Source: a plasmid
Direction: 5' to 3' (one strand)
DNA: 64,000 nt
Sequence record: NZ_CP118102.1
Positions 27,173 to 55,143 of this stretch are shown here, piece after piece; position 1 is the stretch's first letter; each line of letters begins with the position of its first letter. The translations under genes and the position numbers were made by a program. The notes below the pieces were generated by a model. It did not search any database and was not told where the DNA came from. It saw nothing but the letters and a program-made list of their open reading frames with translations.

Positions 27173-27231
27173 GATCGCAGGCAACGACGGCTTCGGCCAG
27201 CCAATTCGACTCGTCCGTCAGGAGGGCTTGC

Positions 27232-29735: not shown

Positions 29736-29771
29736 AGAATGCGCGCGGCTGGACGAAAAGGAAAGAGGGGC

Positions 29772-29784: not shown

Positions 29785-29888
29785 AACCCCTTAAATACGA
29801 GGGATGTTGTCAGGTTAATCTAAATTCGCGAGGTTGTAGGAGCAAATGTTCGCAATCGAACGACTCGGAATCGCATAGGACGATGGGA

Positions 29889-30063: not shown

Positions 30064-30286
30064 TGCGATTACCGCCATCACCACGACCACCATCGCGACC
30101 ATCACCAACGACCACCATCGTCACGATCACGACGTCTACCCAACGGCAGTTGTTCCCCGCGAGCCAGGTTCCCGCCCACCCAACCTTGTGCAAAGGGATG
30201 GCGGTGTCGCGAAGCGTTGTTCCTGGCTGTATGCGTTGCTCCCTCTCTGGGGCTTAATCTGACCACATTGGGACAGCCCCCTCATC

Positions 30287-31330: not shown

Positions 31331-31401
31331 CGCTGATCTCTCCTCAGTCTATATAGATTGAACCAATGAAACGGGAAGTTCAACCTATATAGTTAATGGT
31401 G

Positions 31402-32298: not shown

Positions 32299-32428
32299 GG
32301 GTCAACCTCCTTCTGCTGCTCGAATGATATGGAACTGCTGTTCGTTTGTACCGTCTCTCCCAGTGTACCACGTTTTGCTCCTTGGGGCTTGCCGCCCGGG
32401 GAGGGAGAGAAGCAAGGCAATTTCTGCG

Positions 32429-38004: not shown

Positions 38005-38995
38005 GGATCAGCCCTCCCAGCGTCAGTCCCGCCGCCGTTCCGATCAGCAGCACGCGGTCCCCCCGCTCGATCCGTCCCGTCCGGATCGCTTCATGAAGGC
38101 CCATCGGGAGGGAGGCGGCGATCGTATTGCCGTGGTTCGGCGTAATATAGACAAGCTGGCGCTCGGCTATGCCCAGCTTCTTGCGCATGAGGCGAACGGC
38201 CATCGCGCTGCCTTGGTGGGGGATGACCGCTTTAAGGTCCGACATGACCGTTCCCGCCGATTGCAGCAGCTCCTCTGTGAAGTCGGGCAGCAGGCGAGAA
38301 GCCATCTTGTAGATGGCCGGACCGTCCATCGAGAACAGATAGTCGTCCGCGGCGGCGGGACGATAGCCGTTCGGGTGACGCCTGGTGCCGCCCGCGCGAA
38401 TCTCGGAGAAGGCGGCTCCGGCGCTGTAGGTGCGCATGGAGGCGCCGACGATGGCGGACGGCTCGCCGTCCTCCGCCGGACCGAGGACAACGGCGGCTGC
38501 TCCGTCCCCGAACAGCGCGGCGCTTTCCTTGTGCCGCCAATCGAGGCCGACGGAAGCGATCTCGGACGTGACGATCAGCACGTAGCGGTATCTTCCGGCC
38601 GCGATCATGCAGGACATGGCGTCAAGCGCCGCCAGGAAGCTGAGACAGGTGGAATCAATATCAAAGGCGGGGACGCCGGACTGCTCCATCCCCAACTCGC
38701 GTTGAATGAATACGGCGGAGCAGGGGAGAGCTTGCTCCTTGGTGCCGCTTGCGCCGACGAGGCAATCCATGTCGGTGAACTTCAGGTTGGCGGCTTGAAG
38801 GGCGGCTTGGGCGGCTTTCGCGCCCATGGCGGATGCGGTGTCGTCTTCTCCGGCGTAGTGCCGGGAGACGATGTCCGTCACCCTGCGCGTCCAGCCCCGG
38901 GAAACGCCGAGGCGATCGTCCATCTCCAGATCGGAGATCGGGCGGCCGGGCAAGTATTTGCCCGTTCCGTATATTTTGACTTTGCGAATGTTCAT
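37994..38995 (-). CDS. 3-oxoacyl-ACP synthase III (FabH/KASIII-like) condensing enzyme
   Basis: Active-site Cys context DIDSTCLSF. His/Asn region. GGGAAGGAG RBS. Typical 333-aa KASIII length. Overlaps the ATP-grasp start by 11 nt. Confidence 0.8.
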   Translation of the reverse strand: MNIRKVKIYGTGKYLPGRPISDLEMDDRLGVSRGWTRRVTDIVSRHYAGEDDTASAMGAKAAQAALQAANLKFTDMDCLVGASGTKEQALPCSAVFIQRELGMEQSGVPAFDIDSTCLSFLAALDAMSCMIAAGRYRYVLIVTSEIASVGLDWRHKESAALFGDGAAAVVLGPAEDGEPSAIVGASMRTYSAGAAFSEIRAGGTRRHPNGYRPAAADDYLFSMDGPAIYKMASRLLPDFTEELLQSAGTVMSDLKAVIPHQGSAMAVRLMRKKLGIAERQLVYITPNHGNTIAASLPMGLHEAIRTGRIERGDRVLLIGTAAGLTLGGLILDY

Positions 38996-39210
38996 AGAGA
39001 GATCTCCTTCCCGCGCATCGTTCCCGCAAGTTCATTGTGCCGGAAAGAGGACGGACCGAATAGTACCAATTTCGCCTGGTACCTCCGTTATTCGACTGCA
39101 AACATACATGTTCGACAGAAGTCGCGCAGGTTCCTGTCGCCGGATCGGGACACGCCAAATAACCCGAACCGATTGCGGTCCGGGCTAGGCACGCCCTAAT
39201 GGATGCGACC

Positions 39211-39726
39211 TTATTGCTCCGCTTTGACGATGCTTTTGCCGAACAGATACAGAACGCCGACCCCTCCGAACATAAGAGCAAGCAGGAAATAGAAGTAAAA
39301 CACGCGCGCCACCTCCCGGAATTGGATTAGGAAATCGAACACCCCAACTGTAAGCCAGACTGGAGGAGCTGTGACCACCCAATTGCGAGAAAATGCGGCC
39401 AGCCAAAAAGCTTGGTAACGACTGGCGTTGGGGAACAGGGAAAGAGACAGAGGCAGGGCGGCGTAATGACAGGGGCACAGGCGAGCCTTGTGCGACGGGT
39501 CAGGAGGGCGGATGATAAGCTCGCGTGGCGGTACTGTTGGGGGAGGCGGGTCAGGCGGTCGGACAATAAGCTCGCGTGGCGGTACTGTTGGGGGAGGCGG
39601 GTCAGGCGGGCGGATGATAAGCTCGCGAGGCGGTACTGTGGAGGGCGACGGGACAGGCGGTCGGACAATAAGCTCGCGTGGCGGTACTGTTGGGGGAGGC
39701 GGGTCAGGCGGGCGGATGATAAGCAC
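39211..39726 (-). CDS. proline-rich 17-aa repeat protein (PPDPPPPTVPPRELIIR x5) with a C-terminal TM segment; possibly a truncated or pseudogenised longer repeat protein
   Basis: Minus-strand frame gives P-rich repeats and a hydrophobic tail FYFYFLLALMFGGVGVLYLF. Upstream repeat copies carry the GTCAGA variant that creates in-frame TGA. Two plus-strand frames are also open across the array, so the coding status is uncertain. Confidence 0.3.
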   Translation of the reverse strand: MLIIRPPDPPPPTVPPRELIVRPPVPSPSTVPPRELIIRPPDPPPPTVPPRELIVRPPDPPPPTVPPRELIIRPPDPSHKARLCPCHYAALPLSLSLFPNASRYQAFWLAAFSRNWVVTAPPVWLTVGVFDFLIQFREVARVFYFYFLLALMFGGVGVLYLFGKSIVKAEQ

Positions 39727-39965
39727 GCGTGGCGGTACTGTTGGGGGCGGCAGGTCAGGCAGTCAGACGATAAGCACGCGTGGCGGTACTGTGGAGGGCG
39801 GCGGGTCAGGCGGTCGGACGATAAGCACGCGTGGCGGTACTGTTGGGGGCGGCGGGTCAGGCGGTCAGACGATAAGCACGCGTGGCGGTACTGTTGGGGG
39901 CGGCAGGTCAGGCAGTCAGACGATAAGCTCGCGTGGAGGTACTGTTGGGGGCGGCGGTTTGTGTT
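39490..39965. repeat. 51-bp tandem repeat x9 (GC-rich; unit about GGCGGTCGGACAATAAGCTCGCGTGGCGGTACTGTTGGGGGAGGCGGGTCA)
   Basis: The ATAAG anchor recurs at 39515, 39566, 39617, 39668, 39719, 39770, 39821, 39872 and 39923, exactly 51 bp apart. Two sequence variants (CGGACAATAAGCTCGCG and CAGACGATAAGCACGCG). Confidence 0.9.
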
Positions 39966-40068
39966 GTGCAGGATGCTCCGTGTGGAGCATCCTGCAGTGG
40001 AGTTGGAGCCATTAGTTGAGTGTCGGGAACGATCCGACGTTGCCGTCCAATGGGTTTCGGGGAGCGAA

Positions 40069-41460
40069 TCAGCCGCGGACGAACCGTTCGAAGAGGGAGC
40101 CGGCGGCCAGCACTAGTTCGTCGTCGCCGCGACGCCCTGTGAGCTGCAGGCCGATCGGCAGTCCTTCCGAGGAGAGGCCGGCAGGCAGCGACAGCGCCGG
40201 GAGCCCCCACAGGTTGGCAAGCGGAGTGAACTCGCCGTTGGCGGGTCCGCCCGGCTTGCCTGCCGGGATCGGGCCGGCGGTGACCGGACAGGTGGGGGAG
40301 ACGAGTACGTCGATCTCTTCGAACAAACTGTCAACCAACGAGCGATGGGAATCCCTCCAGCTCAGGCAGACGTCATAGTCGCTCGTCGTAATGGCGCGTC
40401 CCGCCTCCAAGCTGTTCCGCATCCGTTCGCTGTAACCTTTCGCCCAATCCGTCAGCTTTTCTGTATGTGTCCGATATGCCTCGTAATGCAAAATCGTCCA
40501 CGTTTTTTCCTTCACCTCGGAGATTGGAAGCTCTGTGTTCAACCGCTTGACGCGGAAGCCGGCCTTCTCCATCGTCTGGACTACGCCAAGGATCGCATCG
40601 CGAATTTCGGGCTCTGCCTCCGCATCCAAATAGTCGGTCGCTACGCCGATTGTCAGCGGCTTCTCAGTCGCGCGAGCCCTGATGCCGGGTTGCTCCACTT
40701 CCACGTTCAGTCGCATCCGATTCTCCGCAGATTCCTCCATAAGACGCGTTCCTTTTTCATCCGAACGCTCCGCAAGAACGTTAAACAGCAAGGAGACGTC
40801 TTCGCAAGTGCGTGCCAACACGCCTGCATGATCCAGCGACGGCGCCAGCGGCGTAATGCCGTCCAGGCTGAGGCGCCCCGCGGACGGCTTGAATCCGGCG
40901 ACACCGCAGAAGCTGGCCGGCACCCGGACGGAGCCGGCTGAGTCGGTGCCGATCGAGCCGAGGGCGAAACCGGCGGCGATCCCCGCGGCGGAGCCGGAGC
41001 TGGAGCCGCCGGGCAGTCGGCCGGGCCGCAGCGGATTAAGCGTCCAGCCGAAGGCCGGGTGAGGCCGGCCGTAAGCGAACTCGTACAAATGCGCCTTGCC
41101 GATGATGACTGAGCCGGCCTCCAACAGCTTGGCGACGACGCGTGCATGCGCTTCTGGAACCGGCACGGGAGATCGGCCCGAGCCGTTCGTCAGCGGCACT
41201 CCCGCATAAGCGATCATATCTTTGACGGATACCGGGATGCCGTGCAGCGGTCCGCGGTCGCGGCCGTCCCGCAGCTCGCGCTCGGCCTGCGCGGCCTGTG
41301 CCCGAGCTTCGTCCTCCATCAGATGAAGGAAGGAGCGATACCGGTCGTCTTCGTTTCGTATTCGCTGCAGAAGCGATTCCAGCAGTTGGACGGGAGAGAG
41401 CTCTCCGCTGCGGAAGGCCCGTCCTGCCGCCGCGATCGTCCATTGGTCGTTTCGGGGCAT
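40069..41460 (-). CDS. amidase-signature family amidase (GatA-like)
   Basis: GPLHGIPVSVKDMIAYAGVPLTNGS contains the Ser-cisSer-Lys triad lysine and GGSSGG-like motif GGSSSGSAAGIAAG. Confidence 0.8.
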   Translation of the reverse strand: MPRNDQWTIAAAGRAFRSGELSPVQLLESLLQRIRNEDDRYRSFLHLMEDEARAQAAQAERELRDGRDRGPLHGIPVSVKDMIAYAGVPLTNGSGRSPVPVPEAHARVVAKLLEAGSVIIGKAHLYEFAYGRPHPAFGWTLNPLRPGRLPGGSSSGSAAGIAAGFALGSIGTDSAGSVRVPASFCGVAGFKPSAGRLSLDGITPLAPSLDHAGVLARTCEDVSLLFNVLAERSDEKGTRLMEESAENRMRLNVEVEQPGIRARATEKPLTIGVATDYLDAEAEPEIRDAILGVVQTMEKAGFRVKRLNTELPISEVKEKTWTILHYEAYRTHTEKLTDWAKGYSERMRNSLEAGRAITTSDYDVCLSWRDSHRSLVDSLFEEIDVLVSPTCPVTAGPIPAGKPGGPANGEFTPLANLWGLPALSLPAGLSSEGLPIGLQLTGRRGDDELVLAAGSLFERFVRG

Positions 41461-41891
41461 GTCTCATTCCTCCATGTGTTAAGCATATACGAAATCAGAG
41501 TTGCGAGGTTGGGATAAAATTGGAGCAGATTGCGAAAACGGCGTGTGCATTGGCGACGACTGACCGAAAGGGATGACGACCAACGGCATTGACAGCGGCC
41601 GACATACGGAAGGGCGACAGACCAAGGTGTTCGAGGCGGCGGACGTAAGCAACTGCCGGCGATTGCGGTGAAAAAGATAACGGCTTGCGAAGGTATATAA
41701 CGAGATTGCGACGAACGTTTATCCGACTTTACAACTTGGATAACTCATACTATGATAGCGTCAAGCGCCGGTTAGGTGCAAGGTTATCGCGTCTTCGCGC
41801 TTAGTCTTGAACAAGAGGAGCGAGACTTCAGAATCCCGATATAACAAAATGAAGCGCAATTCAATACAAATCCCGATTCGGAGGCGGTCAT

Positions 41892-42859
41892 ATGGCGGCA
41901 CACGGAACTGCAAACGAATTTATCGCCCGGCTGTACGAAGCGAAGCTGGCCCGGGCTGCGAAGCTCCCCGACCCGGCGGCGGATGGGGAGGAGCTGCTGC
42001 GCAGAAGGGAGCGGTTGGCCAGTCTGCTTCGCATCCCCCTTGCACAGGAAAATGCCGTCCCGCCGGATGCTGAGCTGCTGGAACGTACGGACCAAGGGGC
42101 TTACATTCGCGAACGGGTGGAGATCGGCACGAGGGACGGCCTGCGCATGCCGATGTACGTGCTGCTCCCCAAGACGGCGTCCGCCAGCAGCCCCGCACCT
42201 GCCGTACTGGCGCTGCACGGCCACGGCTACGGCAGCCGCGAGCTGGTCGGACTGACGCCGGACGGACGCGACGAGCCGGAGGGAACGGGCATTCACAAGC
42301 ATTTCGCGCTGTCTCTCGTCAAGCGCGGTCTGGCCGTCATTGTACCCGAACTGCTCGGCTTCGGCGAGCGCCGGCTGGAGGAGGATAGCCGGCTGGACGA
42401 AAATCCGGCGGATATGCGCAACTCCTCCTGCTACAAACTGTCCTCCTTTTTGACTCATCTGGGAGAGACGCTGGCGGAGCGTTCGTCGCGTATTTGGCGG
42501 CAGCGCTGGATGAACGCTTCCGTGCCGTCGTATTAAGCGGGTATACGAATACTTATGAGGACAGTTACTTTTTCTCCCGGCAGCACTGTCTGTGCGACTA
42601 TATTCCCGGAATCGTCGAGTTGGGCGACATGCCCGATCTCGTCGGATTGATCGCTCCCCGTTCCCTGTACTTGGAGGTCGGGAAGAGCGACCATCTGTTT
42701 CCGGTGGAAGGGGCGGTCAGAGCAGCTGAGCGGATCGGAATGTATTACGAGCGCTTGGGCGCGGCGGACCGGCTTGTGTTGGATATTTTTGACGGGGGAC
42801 ACGAAATCGGGGGAATCGGCTCGTTCGATTGGTTGAGGAAGGAGCTGGATGCGCTATGA
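41892..42859 (+). pseudogene. alpha/beta-hydrolase (dienelactone hydrolase / acetyl-esterase-like) gene interrupted by a 1-nt frameshift near 42478
   Basis: Track ORFs 41892-42536 and 42494-42859 are the two halves. Inserting one G in CTGGCGGAGCG gives the continuous ...LGETLAGAFVAYLAAALDERFRAVVLSGY.... LALHGHGYG and later GGHE motifs typical of alpha/beta hydrolases. Confidence 0.55.
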
Positions 42860-43728
42860 GCCGAACGATCAATCCGGTTCCGCAGCTGGTCGAGCGCAGC
42901 TTCCTGTTCTTCCACCGCCTCGAAACCCGGGAAGGCCATCTGGAAATCGTCAACGCCCACCAAGGCATCGAAATCGTGCTCGTGAGGGAAGGACGCGGTC
43001 AGCTGATTCTCGACCGGACGGTGCACCCGATCGGGCCGGGAACGTTTGTCGTAATCCAGCCGTACCAGCTGCATCATTTTAAGATGGAGCCTCCTTACGT
43101 GCGCACGCCGCTCGTATTCGATCCTTATTTGTTCGACCGCTATGCCGCGTTGTTTCCGGCGCTGCAAGCCTTTTTTCATCGGCTGTGGAAAGGAAAGCAC
43201 GGAGGGCGGCTGTTCGCGCTCAGCGAGGAGGAGTTGGAGCGGTTGGACGGGTTGGCCGGACAGTTCGAGCGCAGGCTCGGCGAGGTGCCGGAATACGGGA
43301 GACAGGAGGAATTGTTGCTGTTTCTGCTCGACTGGATGCGGGAGCTGCGCGTAATCTGCGAGCGGGACGACCGGCGCGAGCCGGATGCGGCCGGCAAGCG
43401 GGAAGGCAGACATATCGAGCAGATGATGAGCTGGATCGAGGAGCATTACCACGAAAGCTTCTCATTGGAAAAGCTGGCCGAAGCGCTTCATCTGTCGCCG
43501 TTCTACGCCTCGCATCTGTTCAGCGAAGAGACCGGCTGCACGCTCAGTCAGTACATTATAGCCCGCAGATTGCGCGAGTCGTGTCTGCTGCTGACGATGA
43601 CCGACCGGCCCGTAGCGCAGATCGGCAAGCAGATCGGTTTTAACAGCAGCGCCTACTTCTGCAAGACGTTCAAGAAAAAGATGGGCTTATCGCCGCAAGC
43701 TTTCCGCAAGCGCTCCGGACAGGCGTAA
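42856..43728 (+). CDS. AraC-family transcriptional regulator (cupin sensor plus HTH)
   Basis: ATG 42856 overlaps the hydrolase stop (ATGA). C-terminal AraC HTH IARRLRESCLLLTMTDRPVAQIGKQIGFNSSAYFCKTFKKKMGLSPQAFR. Confidence 0.8.
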   Translation: MSRTINPVPQLVERSFLFFHRLETREGHLEIVNAHQGIEIVLVREGRGQLILDRTVHPIGPGTFVVIQPYQLHHFKMEPPYVRTPLVFDPYLFDRYAALFPALQAFFHRLWKGKHGGRLFALSEEELERLDGLAGQFERRLGEVPEYGRQEELLLFLLDWMRELRVICERDDRREPDAAGKREGRHIEQMMSWIEEHYHESFSLEKLAEALHLSPFYASHLFSEETGCTLSQYIIARRLRESCLLLTMTDRPVAQIGKQIGFNSSAYFCKTFKKKMGLSPQAFRKRSGQA

Positions 43729-43972
43729 CGACGGGAGAAGGCGAACCAGCCGGAGCGCAGGAGGAGAACCGCCCCGCGCCGGTTGATTCGTCATGCCCGA
43801 AAACGGCCGTACGTCGCGTCCTGGAGGGGCGCTGTGCCATCCGGCAAACGGATCAGACGCCGGGCTATCGGTCAGACGGAATGAACGACAGGAGGCTGCG
43901 CGATCCGGAGGAAAAGTCCGAAACGGCGGCAAGTCAGGCCTCATACCCGCTCTACAAGGAGGAATAAGTCAG

Positions 43973-44812
43973 ATGAAATACGCGTTCAATACGGCATCGG
44001 CCCCGACGCTGACGCTGCCGGAGCTGCTGGAAGCGGCTCGTCGCTACGGCTACGGTGGTCTGGAAGTACGAGCCGGAGTCGGACATCGTCACGGCATCGA
44101 AATCGACGCCGGCACGGAAGCGCGCCAAAGCTTGAGACGGCTGGCGGAGAAGGCAAAAGTCGCCCTGACGGCGCTCGGCGTATCCAGCCGGTTCTCGGCG
44201 GCGGAGGAGGAGGGCGAGGCGCAGATAGACGCTGCCGAGAAAGCCATTGAGTTGGCGGCGGATATGGGGATTCCGTATGTTCGGCTGTTTTGCGGCCGGA
44301 TTGCGGCGGGAGACAGCCGGGACAAAGCGCGGGAACGCATCGTGGAGGCGCTGCGCCGACTCGCGCCAAGCGGGACGGAGCATGGAGTCGTTCTGCTGCT
44401 GGAGACGCACGACGACTGGTCTGCCCCTGGCGAGCTGGCAGAGGTGCTGCGGCGGGTTGGTCATCCAAGCGTTGCGGCTCTCTGGGACGTGCTTCATACG
44501 CAGCACGAAGGAGAGGCATCGCCCGCGGAAACCGTCGCCGCGCTGGGGCCGTGGATCCGCCACGTCCATGTGCACGACGGCGTCCGCAAACCGCCCGGGA
44601 GCACCGGGCATCCGCATTACCGCGCCATCGGCAGCGGCGATGTCGATCATGCCGAGGTCATCCGGGCGCTGAACGGCATCGGCTATACGGGCTGGCTGAG
44701 CGGGGAGTGGTACGAATGGGAGCCGCGCGAGACGCATCTGCCGCGCGAGCTGGAGGCGCTGCGGCGGGCCGAGCAAGCGGCCGGGAAAGGAGCGTCCGAA
44801 GATGGCCTTTAA
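43973..44812 (+). CDS. sugar phosphate isomerase/epimerase (xylose-isomerase-like TIM barrel)
   Basis: CAAGGAGG RBS then ATG 43973 (MKYAFNTASAP). GLEVRAG and LLETHDDW metal-site pattern. The minus-strand ORF 43952-44839 is antisense noise. Confidence 0.8.
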   Translation: MKYAFNTASAPTLTLPELLEAARRYGYGGLEVRAGVGHRHGIEIDAGTEARQSLRRLAEKAKVALTALGVSSRFSAAEEEGEAQIDAAEKAIELAADMGIPYVRLFCGRIAAGDSRDKARERIVEALRRLAPSGTEHGVVLLLETHDDWSAPGELAEVLRRVGHPSVAALWDVLHTQHEGEASPAETVAALGPWIRHVHVHDGVRKPPGSTGHPHYRAIGSGDVDHAEVIRALNGIGYTGWLSGEWYEWEPRETHLPRELEALRRAEQAAGKGASEDGL

Positions 44813-45800
44813 AATATGCGTGATCGGATGCGGCGGCATCGCCTGGAGAGGGCATGGTCCGGCGTACCGGCGTTACCGGGAGGAACGGCCGGATACGGAG
44901 CTGGCTGCCTGCGTGGACGCCGATCCGGACAGGGCGGCCAAATTCGCCGAGGAGTTCGGCTTTCGCCGGGCGTACACGAGGGTGGAGGAAGCGCTGGAGA
45001 CGGAGCGTCCAGACGCCGTCTGCCTGCTCGTGCCCGCTCCGTACATCGCGGAGCTGGCCGCATCGATTCTAGGCCAAGGCTACCCGCTGCTGCTGGAGAA
45101 ACCTCCCGGCACGACGCGGGAAGAAGCGCTGCGCATCGCAGCAGCCGCGATTCGGCCGAACGGCGGCGAGATTCCGACACGGGTGGCGTTCAACCGCCGA
45201 TATATGCCGCTGATCGGGCAGGCGGTCGACGCGCTGAAGGAGTGGCGTGAAGCCGGACGGCTGCATCATATCGCTTACGACATCAGCCGGGTTGGCCGAA
45301 CCGACGACGAGGACGCGTCCGTCACCGCGATTCACGGCATCGACGCGCTAAGAACGCTGGCAGGTTCGGATTACCGCGACATTCGCCTGAGCTATCGCCC
45401 GCTCCCGCATCTGGGTTCGCGCGTGACGAATGTCTCGCTGGAAGGCGAGTTTCAGTCCGGGGCGACGTTCCGGCTGAATTATTTTCCGGCGGCGGGGGCG
45501 GTATACGAGAGGGCGGCGATCAACTGTGAAGACGCCACGCTGCTGCTTCGGCTTCCGTTCTGGACGTCGAACGATTCGCCCGGAGGCGTTCTGCTGCAAG
45601 GCAACCGCGAGCTGAAGCATTGGGCGTCGGAAGCCGAGCCGTTCGTAACCAACGGCTTCTACGAGGAGAATGCCGGCTTCTTCGACGCCGTCCGCGCGGG
45701 CATGCAGCCGACTGGAGGAATCCGCACGGCGATTCAGTCGGTAGAGGTGGCGGAGGCGGTGCTGCGGAGAGAGACGCGTTATGCGTCGGACAACAGATAA
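44802..45800 (+). CDS. Gfo/Idh/MocA-family NAD(P)-dependent oxidoreductase
   Basis: N-terminal Rossmann ICVIGCGGIAWRGH. EKP motif LLLEKPPG. Confidence 0.8.
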   Translation: MAFKICVIGCGGIAWRGHGPAYRRYREERPDTELAACVDADPDRAAKFAEEFGFRRAYTRVEEALETERPDAVCLLVPAPYIAELAASILGQGYPLLLEKPPGTTREEALRIAAAAIRPNGGEIPTRVAFNRRYMPLIGQAVDALKEWREAGRLHHIAYDISRVGRTDDEDASVTAIHGIDALRTLAGSDYRDIRLSYRPLPHLGSRVTNVSLEGEFQSGATFRLNYFPAAGAVYERAAINCEDATLLLRLPFWTSNDSPGGVLLQGNRELKHWASEAEPFVTNGFYEENAGFFDAVRAGMQPTGGIRTAIQSVEVAEAVLRRETRYASDNR

Positions 45801-45811
45801 GGAGGACAACG

Positions 45812-48043
45812 ATGAACAGCAAATCAGCGAGCTACGACGTCGTGGTCGCCGGAGGCGGACTGGCCGGCTTCAGCGCGGCGGTGGCAGCGGCCCGGGAAGG
45901 CGCGCGCACCGCGCTCGTGCAGGATCGACCCGTGCTGGGCGGCAACAGCTCGTCGGAAATTCGCGTGACGCCGCACGGCGCCGGACGGTTTCATGCCTAC
46001 GCCAGAGAGACGGGAATCATTACCGAGGTGACGTGCGAGGATCGGGCGAACAACCATGAGCAGTTTCACAACAACGGCTGGACGAACAGCGTGTGGGATA
46101 TGACGTTGTACGATCTGGCGATGAGAACGCCGAACTTGACGGTGTACCTGAACACCTCCGTGCAGCAGGTCGAAAAGGATGGAGACCGGCGCATCGCCGC
46201 CGTTACCGCGAGAGTCGCGGGGGCGGAGACGGAGCTGCGGCTGCAAGGCCGCGTCTTCATCGATTGCACCGGGGACGGCACGGTCGCGGCGCTGGCGGGC
46301 AACGAGTGGCGGATGGGCAGCGAGAGCCGCGACGAATTCGGCGAGCCCCACGCTCCGGAGCGCGCAAGCGGCGACACGATGGGCAGCTCGATCCATTTCC
46401 GCGCCCGCGATACGGGGCGGCCGGCTCCGTTTCGCGCCCCCGAATGGGCCGTCGCGTATGACGATCCCGCCTTTTTCTACGCGCACAATCGCAGACCGTA
46501 CGACATTCGCGCCGGTTACTGGTGGTTCGAGCTGGGTTCGCCTTGGGATACGATACACGACGCGGAGACGATCCGCCATGAGCTGACGCGCCATGTGCTG
46601 GGCGTATGGGACTGGATCAAGAACAAGGACCCGCTGACCCGGGACAAGGCGGTGAATTACGCGCTCGACTGGATCGGCCAGGTGCCGGGCAAAAGGGAAA
46701 GTCGGCGCATAATGGGCCGTTATCTGCTGACCGAGCATGACGTGCTGGAAGGCAGAAAGTTTGCCGACGAGGTCGCCTATGGCGGGTGGTATTTGGACCT
46801 GCACATCCCCGGAGGGCTGCTCGCGCCGACAAGCGAGCTGCCGGGAGCGGCCGAGCTGGTCAGCCCCTACGGCATTCCGCTGCGCATTCTGATCGCCAAG
46901 GATATCGACAACCTGCTGATGGCGGGGCGCAACGTCAGCGTCACGCACGCGGCGCTCGGCACCGTCCGCGTCATGTCGACGACTGCCATTATGGGCCAGG
47001 CGGCAGGAACCGCCGCTGCCGTCGCGCTTAGGCGCGGCATTCCCGTCCCGGACGTGCCGGGGACGGACGCCATTGCGGAGGTGCAGCAGACGCTGCTGCG
47101 GGCCGGCTGTTTCCTGCCGGGCGCAGCGAACGTCGATCCGCTCGACCTCGCCCGGCAGGCGGAGGTGACGGCCAGCAGCGAGGCGGAGCTTGCCGAGACG
47201 GAGCCGGGAGACGAGGGAGAGGCGCTGGACATCCGTCGCAGCCAGTGGGTGGCCGTCGCGGCGGGCGAACTGGAGCATCTGGACGTCTGGGTGGCGAATC
47301 GCGGCGACCATCCGCTCTCGTTCGAAGCCGAATTGCATCGCACCGGGCATATTTGGGATTACGACGTGCGGCAGCAAAACCGGCTGGCCGCAGCCATACT
47401 GGAAGTTCCGCCGGCCTGCGAAGGCTGGATTCGATGGCTGCCGCGGCTGGACGCGCGAAGCGGCCTTCCGGAAGAAGGCTATGTCCGGCTCGATCTGCTG
47501 AACGGCCGCGGGCTGATCTGGCGCCGCGCCAATGCCGTGCACCCCGGGCTTCCGTCGGCCAGCGAACTGGAGCCCGGCCGCCTGCGCAGCCACGACGACG
47601 GACGGACGATGAGCTTCCGCGTCAGTCCGCCCCAGCCGATCTATTCGGCCGCGCAGACGGTCAGCGGCGTCACCCGGCCGCATCGGACCGTCAACCTGTG
47701 GCGTTCGGCGCCAGGCCTGCCGCTTCCGCAGACGCTGGAGCTGCGATGGCGCGAGACGCGGGAGATCGGGACGGTCGAGCTGACTTTTCCGGGACATCTG
47801 CTTCAGGATCACAACCGTTATCCCGCCTACTATCGCGAACCCGACTGTCCGCGCGACTACAGAATTGAGGCTTGGACCGCCGGGGGCTGGGAGAGCGTCC
47901 ACGAGACGTTCGGCAATTATCAGCGCCGCGTGTCTCATCGACTCTCCCGACCGGTACGGACGGAGCGCATCCGCATCGTCTTCCTGGCATCCAACGGAGG
48001 CGCGGAAGCGGCGGTCTACGAGATTCGCTGCTACGGGATATAA
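45812..48043 (+). CDS. large FAD-dependent oxidoreductase (about 744 aa, FAD_oxidored family)
   Basis: AAGGAGG RBS then ATG 45812. N-terminal dinucleotide fold YDVVVAGGGLAGFSAAVAAAREGARTALV. The track ORF 45620 has an N-terminal extension without an RBS. Confidence 0.7.
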   Translation: MNSKSASYDVVVAGGGLAGFSAAVAAAREGARTALVQDRPVLGGNSSSEIRVTPHGAGRFHAYARETGIITEVTCEDRANNHEQFHNNGWTNSVWDMTLYDLAMRTPNLTVYLNTSVQQVEKDGDRRIAAVTARVAGAETELRLQGRVFIDCTGDGTVAALAGNEWRMGSESRDEFGEPHAPERASGDTMGSSIHFRARDTGRPAPFRAPEWAVAYDDPAFFYAHNRRPYDIRAGYWWFELGSPWDTIHDAETIRHELTRHVLGVWDWIKNKDPLTRDKAVNYALDWIGQVPGKRESRRIMGRYLLTEHDVLEGRKFADEVAYGGWYLDLHIPGGLLAPTSELPGAAELVSPYGIPLRILIAKDIDNLLMAGRNVSVTHAALGTVRVMSTTAIMGQAAGTAAAVALRRGIPVPDVPGTDAIAEVQQTLLRAGCFLPGAANVDPLDLARQAEVTASSEAELAETEPGDEGEALDIRRSQWVAVAAGELEHLDVWVANRGDHPLSFEAELHRTGHIWDYDVRQQNRLAAAILEVPPACEGWIRWLPRLDARSGLPEEGYVRLDLLNGRGLIWRRANAVHPGLPSASELEPGRLRSHDDGRTMSFRVSPPQPIYSAAQTVSGVTRPHRTVNLWRSAPGLPLPQTLELRWRETREIGTVELTFPGHLLQDHNRYPAYYREPDCPRDYRIEAWTAGGWESVHETFGNYQRRVSHRLSRPVRTERIRIVFLASNGGAEAAVYEIRCYGI

Positions 48044-48183
48044 CGGGATTGCCTTTTCATAACACAAGCTTGGCATTCTCCAATAACCTACTTTACACCT
48101 CGGAAAACACTGTATTATGATGAGGCCATGCGAGAGGCCGCGCACAACGCAAGTCGAATCCATATTCAAGGAGACAATGACCG

Positions 48184-48999
48184 ATGAACGCTAAAACAAA
48201 AACGTTATTCGCCGTATTGACGCTGGTTGCGGCACTGATCGCCGCAGGCTGCTCGAACGATAAAGGAAACGGCTCCGCACAGTCGGCCGCCGCGCAAACT
48301 TCGCTGGATAAGCTGAAGCAGAAAGGCGAGTTCGTCATCGCGACGACCGGCACGTATCCGCCGTACGCCTTCCACGAGGAGACCGGCGACCGACCGCTGA
48401 CCGGCTTCGATATCGAGCTGCTGACCGAGGTGTTCGCGCGCATCGACGGCGTGAAGCTGTCGTTCAAGGAAGCGGAATGGGACGGCATGCTTGCAGGCCT
48501 GGACGCGGGACGGTTCGACTCGATCCACCAGATCGGAGTCACGGAGGAGCGCAAGGAGAAATACGATTTCGCCGACCCGTACCTGATCTCGTACCCGACG
48601 CTGATCGTGCTGGACGAGACGAAGGATATCAACAGCTTCGAGGATTTGAAGGGCAAGAAAGTGTACGGCTCCAATACGAGCATTTACGGCAAGCTGGCCG
48701 AGTCCTACGGCGCGGTGCTCGTGCCGGAGGGCGAAAGCCTGGAGCTGCTGAAGAACAAACGGGTGGACGCGATCATTTTCAACAATCTGTACTTCCTGGA
48801 GCTGAAGAAAAACCGTCCCGACCTGAACCTGAGAGCGGCCGATCAGGCCGATACGCAGGAGTTGGTGGCGCTGCCTCTCGTGAAGGGCGGAGACGGTACG
48901 GCGATCGCGGCGTTTAACGAGGCGCTGAAGAGCGTGAAGGAAGACGGCATATACGAGAAGCTGTCGCTCAAATGGTTCGGCGAAAACTTGCTGAAGTAA
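48184..48999 (+). CDS. amino-acid ABC transporter substrate-binding lipoprotein (family 3)
   Basis: Lipobox LIAAGCSND. SBP_bac_3 pattern GTYPPYAF...GFDIEL. Confidence 0.8.
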   Translation: MNAKTKTLFAVLTLVAALIAAGCSNDKGNGSAQSAAAQTSLDKLKQKGEFVIATTGTYPPYAFHEETGDRPLTGFDIELLTEVFARIDGVKLSFKEAEWDGMLAGLDAGRFDSIHQIGVTEERKEKYDFADPYLISYPTLIVLDETKDINSFEDLKGKKVYGSNTSIYGKLAESYGAVLVPEGESLELLKNKRVDAIIFNNLYFLELKKNRPDLNLRAADQADTQELVALPLVKGGDGTAIAAFNEALKSVKEDGIYEKLSLKWFGENLLK

Positions 49000-49021
49000 G
49001 GCGGATAAAGGAGGGCTCGGC

Positions 49022-49699
49022 ATGAGCCAGGAGCGCGCGGAAAGACTGTGGGACATAGCCCTCCACTCGTTGTGGCCGCTGCTGCAGGGGATGCTGAAAT
49101 ACACGATTCCTCTGTCGCTCGTCTCGTTCGCGCTGGCGCTGATCTTCGCTCTGCTGATCGCGCTGGCCGGCCTGTCTCCCAGGCCGTACCTGCGGTTGCC
49201 CTCGCGGTTCTACGTCTGGATCGTCCGGGGCACGCCCATTCTCGTTCAACTGTTCATCATTTTCTATGGACTTCCGAATGTCGGCATCGTGCTTCCCGCG
49301 TTCCCGACGGTCGTCATCGCGCTGACGGTGGCGGAAGCGGCGTACTGCTCGGAAATCATGCGCTCGACGATCAAATCTCTGCCGCAGGGGCAGTGGAAGG
49401 CGGGATATTCCCTCGGAATGTCCCCTTTCCAGGTGCTCAGACGCGTCATCTTGCCGCAGGCGGCGCGGATCAGCATTCCGCCGCTCGGCAACCAGTTCAT
49501 CGGCCTGTTCAAGACGTCGTCGCTGGCCGCTCTCGTCACCCTGCCGGACCTGTTCGGCGTGGCCAAGCAGATCGCCGCCTCGACGTTCGAGCCAATGCTG
49601 CTCTATATTATCGCGGCCGGCTACTATTTGCTGATCTGCTCCGCGCTGACGGTCGGCCAGCACCGGCTGGAGAAGAAGTTCGGCAACTATTCGCTGTAG
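49022..49699 (+). CDS. amino-acid ABC transporter permease (HisM/GlnP type)
   Basis: Multi-TM. EAA loop [21 protein letters not shown]. Confidence 0.8.
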
Positions 49700-49719
49700 C
49701 GGGAAAGGAGGGGATCGCC

Positions 49720-50514
49720 ATGTTGAACGTTACGCAGCTTCGCAAAAGCTTCGGCCGCACCGAGGTGCTTCGAGGCATCGACCTGCGCGTGGCCAAGGGG
49801 GAGACGACGATTGTGATCGGTCCTTCAGGTTCAGGCAAGTCGACGCTGCTGAGTTGCCTGAACCTGCTGGAAATTCCCGATTCCGGGGAGCTTGAGCTGG
49901 ACGGCCATCGGATGAAGTTCGGGGACGGCGGCAAAAAGCGGACTCGCGAGCTGATCGGCTATCGGCAGAAAACGGGCATGGTGTTCCAAAGCCATCAGTT
50001 GTTCCCGCACCGGACGGCGCTGGAGAACGTAATCGAAGGGCTGATCGTCGTCAAGCGCTGGAATCGCAGCGACGCGCGCCGACGGGGCGAGGAGCTGCTC
50101 GCCAAAGTCGGTCTGCGCGAATTCGCCGACCGCTACCCGGCACAGCTGTCCGGCGGGCAGCAGCAGCGGGTCGGCATCGCCCGGGCGCTTGCGATGGACC
50201 CGGCGGTGCTGCTGTTCGACGAGCCGACGTCAGCGCTCGATCCGGAGCTGGTCGGCGAAGTGCTGCGGGTGATGAAGGAACTGGCGCGCGAAGGGATGAC
50301 GCTGATCGTGGCGACGCATGAAATGAACTTCGCCCGGGAGGTGGCCGACCGCGTCATCTTCATGGAAAAGGGCTTGATCGCGGACGAAGGCACGGCGGCC
50401 CATATTTTCGGCGCGAGCCGTAACGAGCGGGTGCGTCAGTTTCTCAGCCGGTTCGACGCGGCGGCGGAATTGCCGTCCGTTCCGGTTCAGGTTCAGGTTC
50501 AGGCAACTTTATAA
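49720..50514 (+). CDS. amino-acid ABC transporter ATP-binding protein
   Basis: AAAGGAGGGG RBS then ATG 49720. Walker [18 protein letters not shown]. Walker [12 protein letters not shown]. Confidence 0.85.
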
Positions 50515-50538
50515 TAGAAGAAAGGCGGGTGGCAGCCG

Positions 50539-51891
50539 ATGACGGCAAACCGCAAACAATTGAAACTGGGCTTTATGGTGCACGGCGTCGGGTCGAGCGC
50601 GAGCGCATGGCGGCATCCGGCGGTCGAGTCGGACGCGAGCGTCGCGTTCGACTTTTACCGGCGGCAGGCGCAGATCGCGGAGGCCGGCAAGCTGGACCTC
50701 GTCTTTATCGCGGACGTGCTTTATATTAACGAGCGATCGACGCCGCATTTCGTCAACCATCTGGAGCCGCTGACGCTTCTGGCCGCGCTGGGCGCCGTTA
50801 CTTCGCGGATCGGCCTCGTCGGCACGCTGTCGACGACGTACAGCGAACCCTACGCCGGAGCGCGCCAGCTCGCTTCGATCGACCGGATCAGCGGAGGACG
50901 GGCGGGCTGGAACGTCGTGACGACCGGCATGCGCGGAGCGGCGCTCAACTTCGGCAAAGCGGAGGACGCGCACCCGGATCACGATACGCGCTACCGGATC
51001 GCGGGCGAATATTTGGAGGCGGCGCGCGGACTGTGGGATTCGTGGGAGGACGACGCGTTCGTAAGGGACAAGGAGAGCGGCGTCTTTTACGACCCGGACA
51101 AGCTGCATACGCTCGACTACCGGGGCGAGTTCTTCTCGGTTCGCGGTCCGCTGAACATCGCGCGCTCCAAGCAGGGGCATCCGGTCATCTTCCAGGCGGG
51201 CTCCTCGGAGGACGGTCAGAACTTCGCCGCCCGCCATGCCGACGCGGTCATGACCGGCATTACCGAGCCGGAGGAGGCGCGGCGTTATTATCGGGAGCTG
51301 AAGCGCAAAGCCGCTGCAGCGGGACGAAATCCGGACGATCTGCTCGTTATGCCGAGCGCCGCCGTCGTCGTAGGCCGAACGAGGGAAGAGGCGGAGGAGA
51401 AGTACGAGGCGACCGCTTCGCTCCTGTCGATCGAGGAGGCGATGCGGTATTTCGCGCAGTTTTTCGACTTTCACGATTTTACGCAGTATCCGCTCGACGG
51501 TCCGTTTCCCGAGCTGGGCGACTTGGGGCGCAGCAGCTATCAGAGCTTTACGGACAGGGTCAAGCGCGAGGCGCGGGACAAGGGGCTGACGCTGCGCCAG
51601 ACGATTCGCAGGTTCGCCGCGCCGAAGCCGCGTTTTCTCGGTTCGGCAGCCGAAGTGGCGGACGGCTTGCAGGAATGGTTCGAGACGGGGTCGGCCGACG
51701 GATTTATATTGCACAGCGACGTGCCGGGCACGTTGTCCGACTTCGCGGAGCTTGTCGTGCCGGTGCTGCAAGAGCGCGGTTTGTTCCGCCGCGAGTACGA
51801 GGCCGATACGCTGCGGGGCATGCTCGGCTTGCCCGTGCCGCGCAATCGCTATGAGGCCGCGCGGGCCGCACGCTTCAAGGACGGCGGGTGA
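50539..51891 (+). CDS. LLM-class flavin-dependent monooxygenase (NtaA/SnaA/DszA family)
   Basis: 450 aa. N-terminal LKLGFMVHGVGSSASAWRHP pattern typical of the family. Confidence 0.8.
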   Translation: MTANRKQLKLGFMVHGVGSSASAWRHPAVESDASVAFDFYRRQAQIAEAGKLDLVFIADVLYINERSTPHFVNHLEPLTLLAALGAVTSRIGLVGTLSTTYSEPYAGARQLASIDRISGGRAGWNVVTTGMRGAALNFGKAEDAHPDHDTRYRIAGEYLEAARGLWDSWEDDAFVRDKESGVFYDPDKLHTLDYRGEFFSVRGPLNIARSKQGHPVIFQAGSSEDGQNFAARHADAVMTGITEPEEARRYYRELKRKAAAAGRNPDDLLVMPSAAVVVGRTREEAEEKYEATASLLSIEEAMRYFAQFFDFHDFTQYPLDGPFPELGDLGRSSYQSFTDRVKREARDKGLTLRQTIRRFAAPKPRFLGSAAEVADGLQEWFETGSADGFILHSDVPGTLSDFAELVVPVLQERGLFRREYEADTLRGMLGLPVPRNRYEAARAARFKDGG

Positions 51892-53104
51892 ACAGCCAGA
51901 ACAGCAGGGCGGCGGCGCTGACAGCCGCGCCGAGCAGACAGACGCCGGTCCAGCCTGCGGCATGGTAGGTCATCGTGGAGGCGATCGAACCGGCCGCGCT
52001 GCCGAACGAGTAGAACATCATGTAGCCGGCGGTCAGCCTGCTCCGGGCTTCCGGCCGCACGGCCAAGATCAGGCTCTGGTTGGTCACATGCACCGCTTGC
52101 ACGGCCGCGTCGAGCAGGACGATGCCGGCGAGCAGCGCGAACAGCGAATGCGGAGTCATTCCGATCGGCAGCCAGGAGCCGAGCAGCAGAAGCAGCGCCG
52201 CTCCGGTCGTTCGCTGTCCGAGGCCGCGATCGGCCCATCTGCCGGCGCGCGCGGCCGCCATCGCTCCGGCGGCTCCCGCCAGTCCGAATGCGCCGATCGC
52301 CGTATGCGACAGCGAGAACGGCGGAGCGCTGAGAGGCAGCGCCAGCGAAGTCCACAAAATGCTGAATGCGGCGAAAATCAGCATGGCAAGGACGGCGCGA
52401 ACACGCAATATCCGCTCCTGCACGAACAGTGCAAGCATCGATCGAAGCAGTCCGAGGTAGGCGACGGATTCGCTCGCAGGCTCGCGAAGAGGCAGCGTCC
52501 GAAGCAGGGCGACGGCCATAACGGACGTCAGCGCCGCCGATGCGAAGTACACGGCCCGCCAGCCGCCCATATCGGCCAATAAGCCCGCGAACGACCGGGC
52601 GAGTAAAATGCCGATGCCGATGCCGCTTGTCACCAAGCCTACGATGCGTCCCCTCTCGGCAGGGGAAGCCAAAGCGGCCGCGTATGCGACCAGCGTCTGC
52701 GTCACGACGGCGAGTCCTCCGACCGCAGCCATGCCGACGAGCAGCGTCGCGCTCGAAGATGAGAAGCCGACCGCCAGCAGCGCGGCGACGGACAGCAGCA
52801 TCTGCGCCCCGATCAGCTTGCGGCGGTTGAGCAGATCGCCCAGCGGCACGAGCAGCAGCAGCCCGAGCGCATAGCAGATTTGCGTTACTGTAACGACGAT
52901 GCCGATCGTGGAGCGGGCGATGCCGAATTCTCCCGCGATCGAATCCAACAGCGGCTGAGCATAGTACACATTGGCGACTGCCAGCCCCGCGGCAGCGGCA
53001 AACAAATAGGCCGCACGCCGCGAAAGATAGGCCGGCTGCGCGGCTCCTGCTTCAAGATGACCGACTTCTGCCGTACTCCCCGAATGCGAAACGCTATTTT
53101 TCAT
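51875..53104 (-). CDS. MFS transporter (12 TM)
   Basis: 409 aa with hydrophobic periodicity and MFS loop motifs. Convergent 17-nt overlap with the monooxygenase 3' end. Confidence 0.8.
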   Translation of the reverse strand: MKNSVSHSGSTAEVGHLEAGAAQPAYLSRRAAYLFAAAAGLAVANVYYAQPLLDSIAGEFGIARSTIGIVVTVTQICYALGLLLLVPLGDLLNRRKLIGAQMLLSVAALLAVGFSSSSATLLVGMAAVGGLAVVTQTLVAYAAALASPAERGRIVGLVTSGIGIGILLARSFAGLLADMGGWRAVYFASAALTSVMAVALLRTLPLREPASESVAYLGLLRSMLALFVQERILRVRAVLAMLIFAAFSILWTSLALPLSAPPFSLSHTAIGAFGLAGAAGAMAAARAGRWADRGLGQRTTGAALLLLLGSWLPIGMTPHSLFALLAGIVLLDAAVQAVHVTNQSLILAVRPEARSRLTAGYMMFYSFGSAAGSIASTMTYHAAGWTGVCLLGAAVSAAALLFWLFTRRP

Positions 53105-53281
53105 ATCTCCATTCCTCCTGTTTCTTCTGCATTTCTATTCTGTACCGAACAGTAAATAATAGAGCGTCACAAATATAGCTTTAAAGAATCGAATCTGTCA
53201 ACTCCTGCGGTAATCCTTTGACAATCAACTTTCCAAGGCGTATATTTTAATATACCGTTCGATACGAAATGAGGGAGAAGT

Positions 53282-53920
53282 ATGGCGCGTACGAGGGAGT
53301 TCGACGAGGAGCAGGCGCTCGATGCGGCGATGCGGCTGTTTTGGGAGAAGGGGTTCGAGGGGACGTCTTTAAGCGATCTGACGGCTGGCATGGGCATACA
53401 GCGCCCGAGCCTGTACGCGGCTTTCGGCGACAAGAAGGAGCTGTTCGAAGCCGCGCTCCGCAAGTATACGGGCGACCATGCCGCATACGTCCGCGCCTCT
53501 CTGCAAAATCGCCCTTCTATTATAGAAGCTTTCCGCAGCCTGTTTCGGAGCACGACGGCAACGGTGGACGAAGAGGGGGCGAGCCGGGGATGCTTCTGCA
53601 TCAACTCGATGGTGGAGCTGGCGCCTCATGACGAGAAATTCGCGGTTTTGACCAGGGAGCATCAGATGTATATCGCCGTTCTCTTCCAGGAAGCAATCGA
53701 GCGTGGGATTCGTTCCGGCGAGCTGGCCCCCGGCATTCATGCCAAAGGTTTGGCCCAAGCGCTGGCCGTCTCGTGGATCGGACTGACGGTGCTGGCGAAG
53801 TCCCGTCCGCCCCGGTCGTTTCTCGATCAGTCGGTGGAGGAAACGGTCGCGCTGCTGCGGCGGGGCGAATCGGATCGTCCATCATTCGGAAATTGTGACG
53901 GGGCCGACATAAATTTATGA
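53282..53920 (+). CDS. TetR/AcrR-family transcriptional regulator
   Basis: N-terminal HTH ...AAMRLFWEKGFEGTSLSDLTAGMGIQRPSLYAAFGDKKELF. Confidence 0.8.
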   Translation: MARTREFDEEQALDAAMRLFWEKGFEGTSLSDLTAGMGIQRPSLYAAFGDKKELFEAALRKYTGDHAAYVRASLQNRPSIIEAFRSLFRSTTATVDEEGASRGCFCINSMVELAPHDEKFAVLTREHQMYIAVLFQEAIERGIRSGELAPGIHAKGLAQALAVSWIGLTVLAKSRPPRSFLDQSVEETVALLRRGESDRPSFGNCDGADINL

Positions 53921-54010
53921 CAAAATGATGGTGTCTCCGCGAAAGCCGCGAATGATCGCGCAAGTTATGTTAGCATAGGGGGAGGATAATCTGGAAGGAG
54001 CGGATAAGCC

Positions 54011-54430
54011 GTGCAGCGAGTTCAAAACAGTCGTCTGAGTCTTGAAATGCCCACCAAATCGTTTATCCATGTCTTATTCGATACGATAAAGATCGGAATT
54101 ATCAAATCCAACTTGATCGCGATGTTCGCCGGCCTGTGCATGGCTCTGTACGTAGAAGGAATCCCGTTCTTCGACAAGATCGGCACGATCGTCCTGGCCG
54201 GGATCGGATCTTTCCTCGTCATCGGTTCGGCGGGCGCGTTCAACAATTTGTACGACCGGGACATCGACGCCATTATGGACAGAACGAAGAAGCGGCCGAC
54301 CGTGACCGGATACGTCGGCACGAGGAGCGGCCTGTTCATCGCCATCTGGACCGCCGTATTCGGCCTGTTCGCCTTGTACGTTGCGTCTCCGTTGGCGGCG
54401 CTGTTCGGCTTTCTCGGCCTGTTCCTGTAG
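54011..54430 (+). pseudogene. ctaB: heme O synthase / protoheme IX farnesyltransferase (CtaB/UbiA family) truncated after about 139 codons by a transposon insertion
   Basis: GTG start after GGAAGGAG. IKIGIIKSNLIAMFAGLCMA...AGAFNNLYDRDIDAIMDRTKKRPTVTG matches the CtaB N-terminal half, including the Asp-rich prenyl-diphosphate motif. The frame ends ...LFL TA|G, where the final G is the first base of the 38-bp IR. Full-length CtaB is about 300 aa. Confidence 0.7.
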
Positions 54431-54467
54431 GGGTACCGCCAACATTTTAACGATAATATACGCTAAG
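54430..54467 (+). mobile_element. 38-bp Tn3-family (Tn4430-type) terminal inverted repeat; left end of a transposon or accessory island extending rightwards
   Basis: GGGGTACCGCCAACATTTTAACGATAATATACGCTAAG. The first 14 nt and last 9 nt are identical to the reverse complement of the IR at 1838-1875. It resembles the Tn4430 IR (GGGGTACCGCCAGCATTT...ACGCTAAG, from memory). It coincides with the abrupt GC drop and the ctaB truncation. Confidence 0.7.
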
Positions 54468-54616
54468 CCTTCGGATGTACCTGGCTTAGCGTTTTTTCTT
54501 ACTCTAAGCCCAATAGTCCGGGCTACACCGCCCGGACTACCGATCACTCACCTTCCTGTTGTTTCAGCGGTCGTAATGAGTTAGCGGACATCAAGTGTAT
54601 GCTTTGAAAACACCAA

Positions 54617-54644
54617 ATGACCGCTAATCTTAATTAGCGGTCAT
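54617..54644. promoter_or_regulatory. perfect 12-bp inverted repeat ATGACCGCTAAT-ctta-ATTAGCGGTCAT plus a third half-site (TTAGCGGACAT at about 54586); candidate recombinase or repressor binding site
   Basis: Exact palindrome with a 4-nt spacer about 150 bp inside the IR. Similar half-site about 20 bp upstream in direct orientation. Confidence 0.4.
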
Positions 54645-54784
54645 TTAATATTAGGAGATCATTCCTTCATGATGGTTCGTAGAGACGATTTGCGCAACCG
54701 AGGAAACACTCGTGCAGCAAATGAATCGGCAACGAATCGCGCTATAGGAATCGTTTCTGCGCGATACTTCACGAAGCATATTTT

Positions 54785-55129
54785 TTATTTTAATATCAAT
54801 TCGATGATGTTGCTTGTTTTGCCACCGGATGACGAACTTTTTTGACGCATTGTCATCCTCCCTGCACCTGCCATTTCCACGAGAATTTGCCCGATGGCGT
54901 TTGTGGTATCAATCACCATGTTTTTGATTGCTTTAGGTTCCAGCGTCACCCCGTTGTCGATGGCTGTGCCATCGATCACACTTGGCAATACATTGCCGTT
55001 TGCACTGTCTTTGACGACCATGTTAATATTTTTTTCTTCGTCGCTGCCATTGTTGATCGCCACCGAAAGTGTGGTTTCTCCGTTTTTGCGAGACATCGTG
55101 AACGTGGTTTTTGAACTGTTTTCAAGCAT
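54785..55129 (-). CDS. hypothetical small protein (Asn/Gly/Val-rich; spore-associated GerP-like flavour, unverified)
   Basis: Strong AAGGAGG RBS 9 nt upstream of ATG on the minus strand. 114 aa. Confidence 0.5.
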   Translation of the reverse strand: MLENSSKTTFTMSRKNGETTLSVAINNGSDEEKNINMVVKDSANGNVLPSVIDGTAIDNGVTLEPKAIKNMVIDTTNAIGQILVEMAGAGRMTMRQKSSSSGGKTSNIIELILK

Positions 55130-55143
55130 GGGTAAACGCCTCC

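Follow-up and report, generated by a model that had tools for sequence, protein, structure and literature searches.

A 64,000-nucleotide stretch of a plasmid (sequence record NZ_CP118102.1), here called the window, includes a ctaB-like heme O synthase gene that breaks off at the left terminal inverted repeat (IR_L) of a Tn3-family transposon. The transposon, named TnX here, is a 2.9-kb non-autonomous element of the Tn4430 family that is bounded by IR_L and a right terminal inverted repeat (IR_R). TnX is joined to S (14319..54429), a block of 40,111 bp with 60.9% guanine plus cytosine (GC), which ends in the ctaB stub (ctaB'). The joint itself is an ordinary Tn3-family transposon product, of the TnpA type and precise to the tip of the inverted repeat (IR). 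With good confidence, TnX and S, with ctaB' fused to IR_L, are regarded as a circularly permuted unit of 43,015 bp that stems from a transposon-made circle and was inserted without IRs. Position 54430 should then be annotated as a transposon end within a 43-kb insertion and not as the edge of an island that encodes E1, E2 and JAB proteins; the true disruption of this island is at 12494/12495 and 55509/55510, where a gene just upstream of E2 is split.

The permuted unit and its versions elsewhere

The inserted unit, B (12495..55509), consists of TnX and S and is opened inside the repeat-protein gene of TnX. Its layout is TnX right part, S and TnX left part, with one TnX copy present in two exactly complementary pieces. 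In intact TnX copies, 54430..55509 runs straight into 12495..14318, and this continuity across 55509|12495 is found in Logan contig L001, two plasmids of Paenibacillus sp. Cedars, a Brevibacillus borstelensis plasmid and the chromosomes of two Paenibacillus urinalis strains.

The E1/E2/JAB island is likewise continuous where B is absent. The segment 8954..12494 (helicase, YdjM, GerE and neighbours) is contiguous with 55510..64000 (Prok-E2_D gene, 466-aa gene, ThiF, PAPS-reductase-like gene and onward to a tyrosine recombinase) at 100% identity in contigs L005 and L007 and at 97.8% in L002 and L008. The P. urinalis plasmids CP118110.1 and CP118105.1 (100% identity) run from ~1876..12494 immediately into 55510 onward. 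The empty site elsewhere reads ...TATTTGGAG|ACG|CACAACAC..., and in the window the ACG is replaced by B with no duplication. Thus, the island resumes at 55510, which is 1,080 bp past the start of IR_L. The disrupted island gene, of 243-245 aa in the intact copies (L005, L007, L002 and L008), has its 5' part at 12308..12494 (plus strand) and its 3' part at 55510..56051 (plus strand), the latter overlapping the start of the Prok-E2_D gene (56048..56761). With B in place, the E2, 466-aa, ThiF and PAPS-reductase-like genes are cut off from the 113-aa and 243-aa genes, so that disruption of the operon is probable in this replicon. The open reading frame (ORF) that crosses the left junction of B (12477..13799, minus strand) is absent from the contig collection.

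The TnX plus S unit is also found in other versions. Version (a), found in the window and in L001, has 54429|IR_L as the end of S. In version (b), from the P. urinalis chromosomes CP118108.1 and CP118106.1, the joint is 48172|IR_L while the IR_R|14319 joint is the same; this version is opened at 18419/18424 with the loss of TGCG and resides inside a GSP_synth gene, the flanks of which rejoin to a single ORF (...ARE|LESH...). Version (c), from ERZ27285304 and SRR5240396, has the 48172 joint and is opened at 13726/13728, and its rejoined flanks form an ORF of ~590 aa. Version (d), from GCA_047246765.1 and GCA_047229105.1, has its left edge exactly at IR' (flank ATTCA), an internal Tn3-family IR of TnX, and lies beside a truncated DNA-ligase gene. 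A 21-kb internal deletion (28138..49081), which ends at two CTGCAG hexamers (28132..28137 and 49082..49087), is common to version (d) and L001. This deletion variant (L001 and GCA_047246765.1) creates a fused Peptidase_M28/BPD_transp_1 ORF of 505 aa.

Among these versions, the IR_L joint is variable (54429 or 48172) and the IR_R joint is constant (14319). The junction loss is 0-4 bp per insertion, microhomology does not exceed 1-3 bp (GCT for the chromosomal copies), and the junctions have no common motif. As each version is intact where another is broken, none is ancestral to the others; therefore, their common ancestor was circular or equivalent.

The ctaB stub and the transposon end

The ctaB' stub (54011..54430, plus strand) retains codons 1-139 of a heme O synthase gene of the CtaB/CyoE type and ends with TAG at 54428..54430. 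An earlier note on this DNA had recognised the gene as ctaB-like, and this identity holds. The stub protein matches Pfam UbiA (E=2e-21, profile positions 2-101 of 250) and aligns with the N-terminal 40% of the NCBIfam heme o synthase model TIGR01473 (positions 4-117 of 281); this partial match of 93 bits is under the curated cut-off of 210 bits because the fragment is truncated. The first Asp-rich prenyl-diphosphate motif (NxxxDxxxD) is found in the translation as NNLYDRDID. The closest intact homologue, in a scan of one genome per species, is a 307-aa protein of a Bacillota metagenome-assembled genome (MAG; L012), which is 89% identical at the amino acid level, passes TIGR01473 at 269.6 bits and reads on past the break as ...FGFLGLFL|YVVPYTIWTK.... 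The stub, as the N-terminal half of the enzyme, aligns with the CtaB/CtaO proteins of Bacillales (UbiA superfamily, TIGR01473), including NNLYDRDID; by contrast, it keeps just 139 of ~307 residues and is located in horizontally acquired DNA.

The joint (54405..54470) reads ...GGC TTT CTC GGC CTG TTC CTG TA|G GGG TAC... and ends, with the IR, in ...CGC TAA G. Nucleotide homology between the window and L012 terminates exactly at 54429, and the codon after the break is TAC or TAT (Tyr) in four ctaB homologues; thus, the cut in ctaB falls between the second and third bases of the Tyr140 codon. The stop TAG is formed by the TA of this codon and the first G of IR_L, so that the split tyrosine codon and the IR-derived stop proposed from the letters alone are borne out, as is an abrupt drop in GC (from 0.61 in the 100 bp upstream of the joint to 0.47 in the 100 bp downstream). 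The same ctaB'|IR_L joint is present in nine Logan contigs (e.g., SRR29842777), while an exact search of metagenome contigs returned none.

The stub cannot function, as the C-terminal half of the UbiA fold is missing. It is neighboured by TetR and MFS genes, not by ctaA or ctaCDEF, which, set against the Bacillus cta gene order, suggests a CtaO-like paralogue. The stub is likely dead passenger DNA rather than an inactivated host gene, and therefore no loss of a host gene is implied. The inactivation of this ctaB copy, as described in the earlier note, stands. The stub would be a scar brought in with foreign DNA that is uninformative on heme O synthesis by the host.

IR_L (54430..54467, plus strand; outer flank CTGTA) is the 38-mer GGGGTACCGCCAACATTTTAACGATAATATACGCTAAG, which starts with GGGG and ends with CTAAG. 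It occurs once in the window, where shuffles predict 0 matches, and at least 10 other replicons have copies of this transposon that end in an identical 38-mer. Its assignment to the Tn4430 type, also made beforehand, agrees with a likeness of 28/38 bases to the Tn4430 IR, including the first 12 (GGGGTACCGCCA, tip) and the last 8 (ACGCTAAG, inner end). The Tn4430 IR used for this comparison was verified by its occurrence at 100% identity in 180 Bacillus cereus-group plasmids, in one of which tnpI- and tnpA-like ORFs come after the IR. The partner, IR_R (14281..14318, minus strand), has the sequence GGGGTCCATCCAACATTTTGACGAAAATATACTCTAAG, is identical to IR_L at 32/38 positions and is flanked on its outer side by TAAAG. 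As in the Tn4430-like subgroup of the Tn3 family, the ends of TnX are ~38-bp terminal inverted repeats with a GGGG start and a TAAG end.

Between these ends, TnX is arranged in the order IR_L, tnpA remnant, resolution-site-like repeats, 114-aa gene, 556-aa gene, IR' and IR_R. The tnpA remnant (54544..54582, minus strand) consists of the last 13 codons, the rest being deleted relative to the full-length element, and tnpI is absent. Besides the Cedars plasmids, at least eight further Paenibacillus genomes have a full-length version of ~6.8 kb. This parent transposon encodes a 989-aa Tn3-family TnpA, the large DDE transposase (DUF4158 plus DDE_Tnp_Tn3) of the Tn4430-like subgroup, and a 305-aa tyrosine recombinase, TnpI (PF00589). 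The TnpA scores 1015 bits against NF033527 and 1330 bits, aligned end to end, against the TnpA of Tn4430 (PDB 7qd4/7qd8). TnX equals the parent minus 3,926 bp with tnpA and tnpI (2075..6000 of L092). Thus, TnX is a new, defective (non-autonomous) member of the Tn4430 group in Paenibacillaceae and a deletion derivative of a ~6.8-kb autonomous transposon that is widespread in Paenibacillus.

Tn4430 is described with a 38-bp IR and a 5-bp stagger (PMC9579193). Six independent copies of this transposon are surrounded by perfect 5-bp duplications (TTATA twice, TACCT, TATCT, TTCAA and TACTT), and four of ten other copies have no target duplication. The 5-bp duplications at intact parent copies are a likeness to Tn4430 of Bacillus thuringiensis, as is the arrangement of the parent in which tnpI and then tnpA both read toward one IR. 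By contrast, the parent has two passenger genes (for the 114-aa protein and the 556-aa repeat protein) as well as an additional IR in its interior, the match between IR_L and IR_R is imperfect (32/38), and the element has a Paenibacillaceae host range. The parent TnpI also differs; it is only ~25% identical to the tnpI-like ORF in a copy with the Tn4430 IR on a B. thuringiensis plasmid.

Origin of the unit and competing explanations

The left end of TnX may have been joined to the ctaB target CTGTA in a high-GC, Paenibacillus-related donor, with TnpA acting in trans. S and one TnX copy would have been released as a circle either through intramolecular replicative transposition of the deletion type or through recombination of two TnX copies, one on each side of S, with the 3' half of ctaB left in the donor. 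Both of these release routes are classical behaviour of the Tn3 family. The 48172|IR_L joint is proposed to be a second event of the same kind, and the circle would have later entered replicons of the P. urinalis group by illegitimate, end-joining-like recombination in which the IRs were not used.

Tn3-family elements (e.g., Tn3, gamma-delta, Tn21 and Tn1721) generate adjacent deletions and replicon fusions by intramolecular or one-ended replicative transposition. The present locus resembles the adjacent deletions in that (i) one transposon end is joined at 54429 or 48172 while the other joint is fixed, (ii) no target duplication is present, and (iii) a unit of one TnX copy and the DNA in between is exactly what deletion-type events are expected to release as a circle. 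By contrast, an IR is expected to persist at one junction after one-ended transposition, whereas the later integrations described here are inside genes, with 1-4 bp lost and without an IR. One-ended transposition is therefore rejected for the window, chromosomal and ERZ27285304 copies, which have no IR at either junction; it may apply to the GCA_047246765.1-type copy, the only one with an IR (IR') at its edge. Integration of the circle by TnpI at its resolution site is also rejected, as the crossovers at 12495, 13727 and 18421 are not at the resolution-site-like repeats, and classical cointegrate formation is rejected, as just one TnX copy is present and is split into two complementary parts.

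Several observations weigh against the derivation from a transposon-made circle. The circle itself has never been observed and is deduced from permuted linear copies, and both junctions between B and the island are seen in this window only. The opening points (12495, 13727, 14052 and 18421) cluster in a ~6-kb arc of the 37-43-kb circle, near the right end of TnX, which is unlikely if breakage was purely random. The missing target duplication is weak evidence for any pathway, because four of ten other copies lack one too. Either of the two TnX/S joints may be the older one, and either intramolecular transposition or recombination between two copies may have made the circle. Neither a donor genome nor the reciprocal joint (IR_R|CTGTAC followed by the ctaB 3' half) was found. 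This joint is predicted to read ...GGATGGACCCC|CTGTACGTC... and to continue into the 3' half of ctaB, and an exact search of metagenome contigs for IR_R followed by CTGTA returned none. The 3' half is neither beside IR_R nor anywhere in the window (tblastn with the C-terminal 168 aa of L012, best E=2.4). A donor-type 3' half is also absent from the protein collection, in which the best C-terminal match has 76% identity, compared to 89% for the N-terminal half of L012.

The earlier note had envisaged a simpler history, in which a large Tn4430-type island with the E1/E2/JAB genes inserted into a resident ctaB paralogue at 54430, with the right IR, a 5-bp duplication and the 3' half of ctaB to be expected past the window end. 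A real Tn3-family IR exactly at the gene break, the GC drop at this point and a tyrosine recombinase gene further to the right (61966..62913) are in its favour; nevertheless, this history is extremely improbable. The island begins at 55510, and six other contigs and plasmids have it joined directly to 1876..12494; the partner of IR_L was found inside the window, at 14281..14318. The flanks disagree, with CTGTA outside IR_L and TAAAG outside IR_R, so that the 5-bp duplication is missing. At the window end no tnpA or second IR is present; the six-frame translation of 62900..64000 yields only a Cu_amine_oxidN1/NPCBM-like ORF. The island recombinase is rejected as the TnpI of TnX, as it is 27% identical to the transposon TnpI and the island is contiguous elsewhere without TnX. 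The short ORF with its ctaB'|IR_L joint stands without an adjoining island in L001, and no ctaB 3' half lies at the far side of the element; the earlier note had named both of these outcomes beforehand as speaking against its proposal.

A history closer to the circle-based one would start with a simple insertion of TnX, or its parent, into the donor ctaB with duplication of CTGTA, after which the 3' half was lost by homologous recombination with a second TnX copy at TAAAG or by an unrelated deletion. It departs from the derivation favoured here solely in the first origin of the ctaB joint and is considered unlikely, though not negligibly so. The element normally inserts in this simple manner with 5-bp duplications, and copies that lack a duplication are common (4/10), as expected from recombination between copies. 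By contrast, the searches yielded neither a copy flanked by CTGTA at its two ends nor a reciprocal joint, and a fixed IR_R joint combined with an IR_L joint that varies (54429 or 48172) resembles the repeated action of one transposon end. Tn4430-type elements show target immunity, which would disfavour two copies that are 40 kb apart. An assembly artefact, in which a chimeric contig wrongly joins plasmid and chromosome, is very improbable. While the 12494/12495 and 55509/55510 junctions are in no other assembly and the tandem repeats of TnX are hard to assemble, the two junctions coincide at a single point in the island, with 3 bp lost, and at a single point in TnX, with 0 bp lost, as would not be the case for a random misjoin. 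Analogous permuted insertions are found in two complete P. urinalis chromosomes, and the ctaB'|IR_L joint itself is in nine Logan contigs.

Beyond the release of a transposon-made circle, a wider scenario is put forward tentatively and at somewhat less than even likelihood. A defective Tn4430-family transposon may have captured 37-40 kb of a high-GC Paenibacillaceae chromosome as a non-replicating circle, which entered P. urinalis-group genomes on at least three to four separate occasions, each time opened elsewhere in the 6-kb arc, mostly without IRs and with 0-4 bp lost. The entry sites, within this same tentative scenario, would be the plasmid defence-like operon, the GSP_synth gene, a membrane-protein gene and a ligase-gene region. 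Such events would, if real, give the Tn3 family a route of large-scale gene capture and spread that is distinct from classical transposition, cointegrate formation and site-specific integration. The locus links a non-autonomous Tn4430-type element with the movement of ~40 kb of chromosomal DNA over a large GC gap, and the independently permuted insertions provide natural material for the study of how transposon-made circles re-integrate.

Further features of TnX, its cargo and the island

The region 54581..54646 of TnX is a candidate resolution site, with a function suggested by its likeness to Tn4430's internal resolution site (IRS). It includes TTAGCGGACAT-type repeats and a perfect 14-bp inverted repeat (AAATGACCGCTAAT / ATTAGCGGTCATTT), and its position is where the region upstream of tnpI starts in the full element; these repeats are kept in the window copy. 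The 114-aa passenger gene (54785..55129, minus strand) has no Pfam match, and an identical protein is encoded in 170 blocks of the contig collection. The other passenger gene, for a 556-aa Ser/Thr/Asn/Asp-rich repeat protein, is severed by the opening of B into a 5' part of 435 codons (12495..13799, minus strand) and a 3' part of 121 codons plus stop (55144..55509, minus strand). The 5' part includes four copies of a 132-bp tandem repeat (96% matches), which span 12916..13438. The copy number of this repeat is strain-dependent and results in repeat proteins of 426, 512 or 556 aa. IR' (14052..14089, plus strand) is identical at 35/38 positions to the IR of a mercury transposon at 1838..1875. 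IR' and IR_R face one another over 191 bp and form a 267-bp unit (14052..14318) in TnX that is similar to a miniature inverted-repeat transposable element.

Block S codes for transporters, an amidase, TetR and MFS genes and a P450-reductase fusion (Pfam p450 with flavodoxin/FAD/NAD-binding domains). It is 99.6-100% identical to an island in the P. urinalis chromosomes and related assemblies, and 82-86% identical to the Bacillota MAG that holds the intact ctaB (L012). The GC of S is 0.61 compared to 0.45-0.52 in the P. urinalis chromosomal flanks; all of these hosts have therefore acquired S. Past IR_R, the TAAAG is followed by the terminator region of an opposite-strand gene for a solute-binding protein. 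PLSDB, which does contain the island and TnX, had no plasmid record that matched a query in which the final 1.4 kb of S (53000..54429) was included. Staggered BLAST self-matches with strain-variable lengths are observed against the P. urinalis loci at 39492..39958 and 22582..23116, which are probably short tandem repeats of ~51 bp and ~100 bp, respectively.

The E1/E2/JAB island has a GC of 0.38 and is interrupted elsewhere as well. In the P. urinalis-type plasmids L003 (CP118110.1), L004 (ERZ27285304) and L006 (CP118105.1), another Tn3-family transposon, which encodes a 977-982-aa TnpA and a serine resolvase, lies inside the ThiF/E1 gene (window ~58291). Thus, the same locus has been struck repeatedly by Tn3-family elements. 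At the left side of the window, merA (TIGR02053, 649 bits) is found in 85..1875 and is followed by a Tn3-family IR (1838..1875, minus strand; GGGGTACCGCCAACAAAACGCGGAAAACGTACGCTAAG), which is the right end of a mercury-resistance transposon. This transposon is missing from otherwise identical P. urinalis plasmids, in which the match begins at 1873/1876, and it appears to cut an ORF that extends to 2495.

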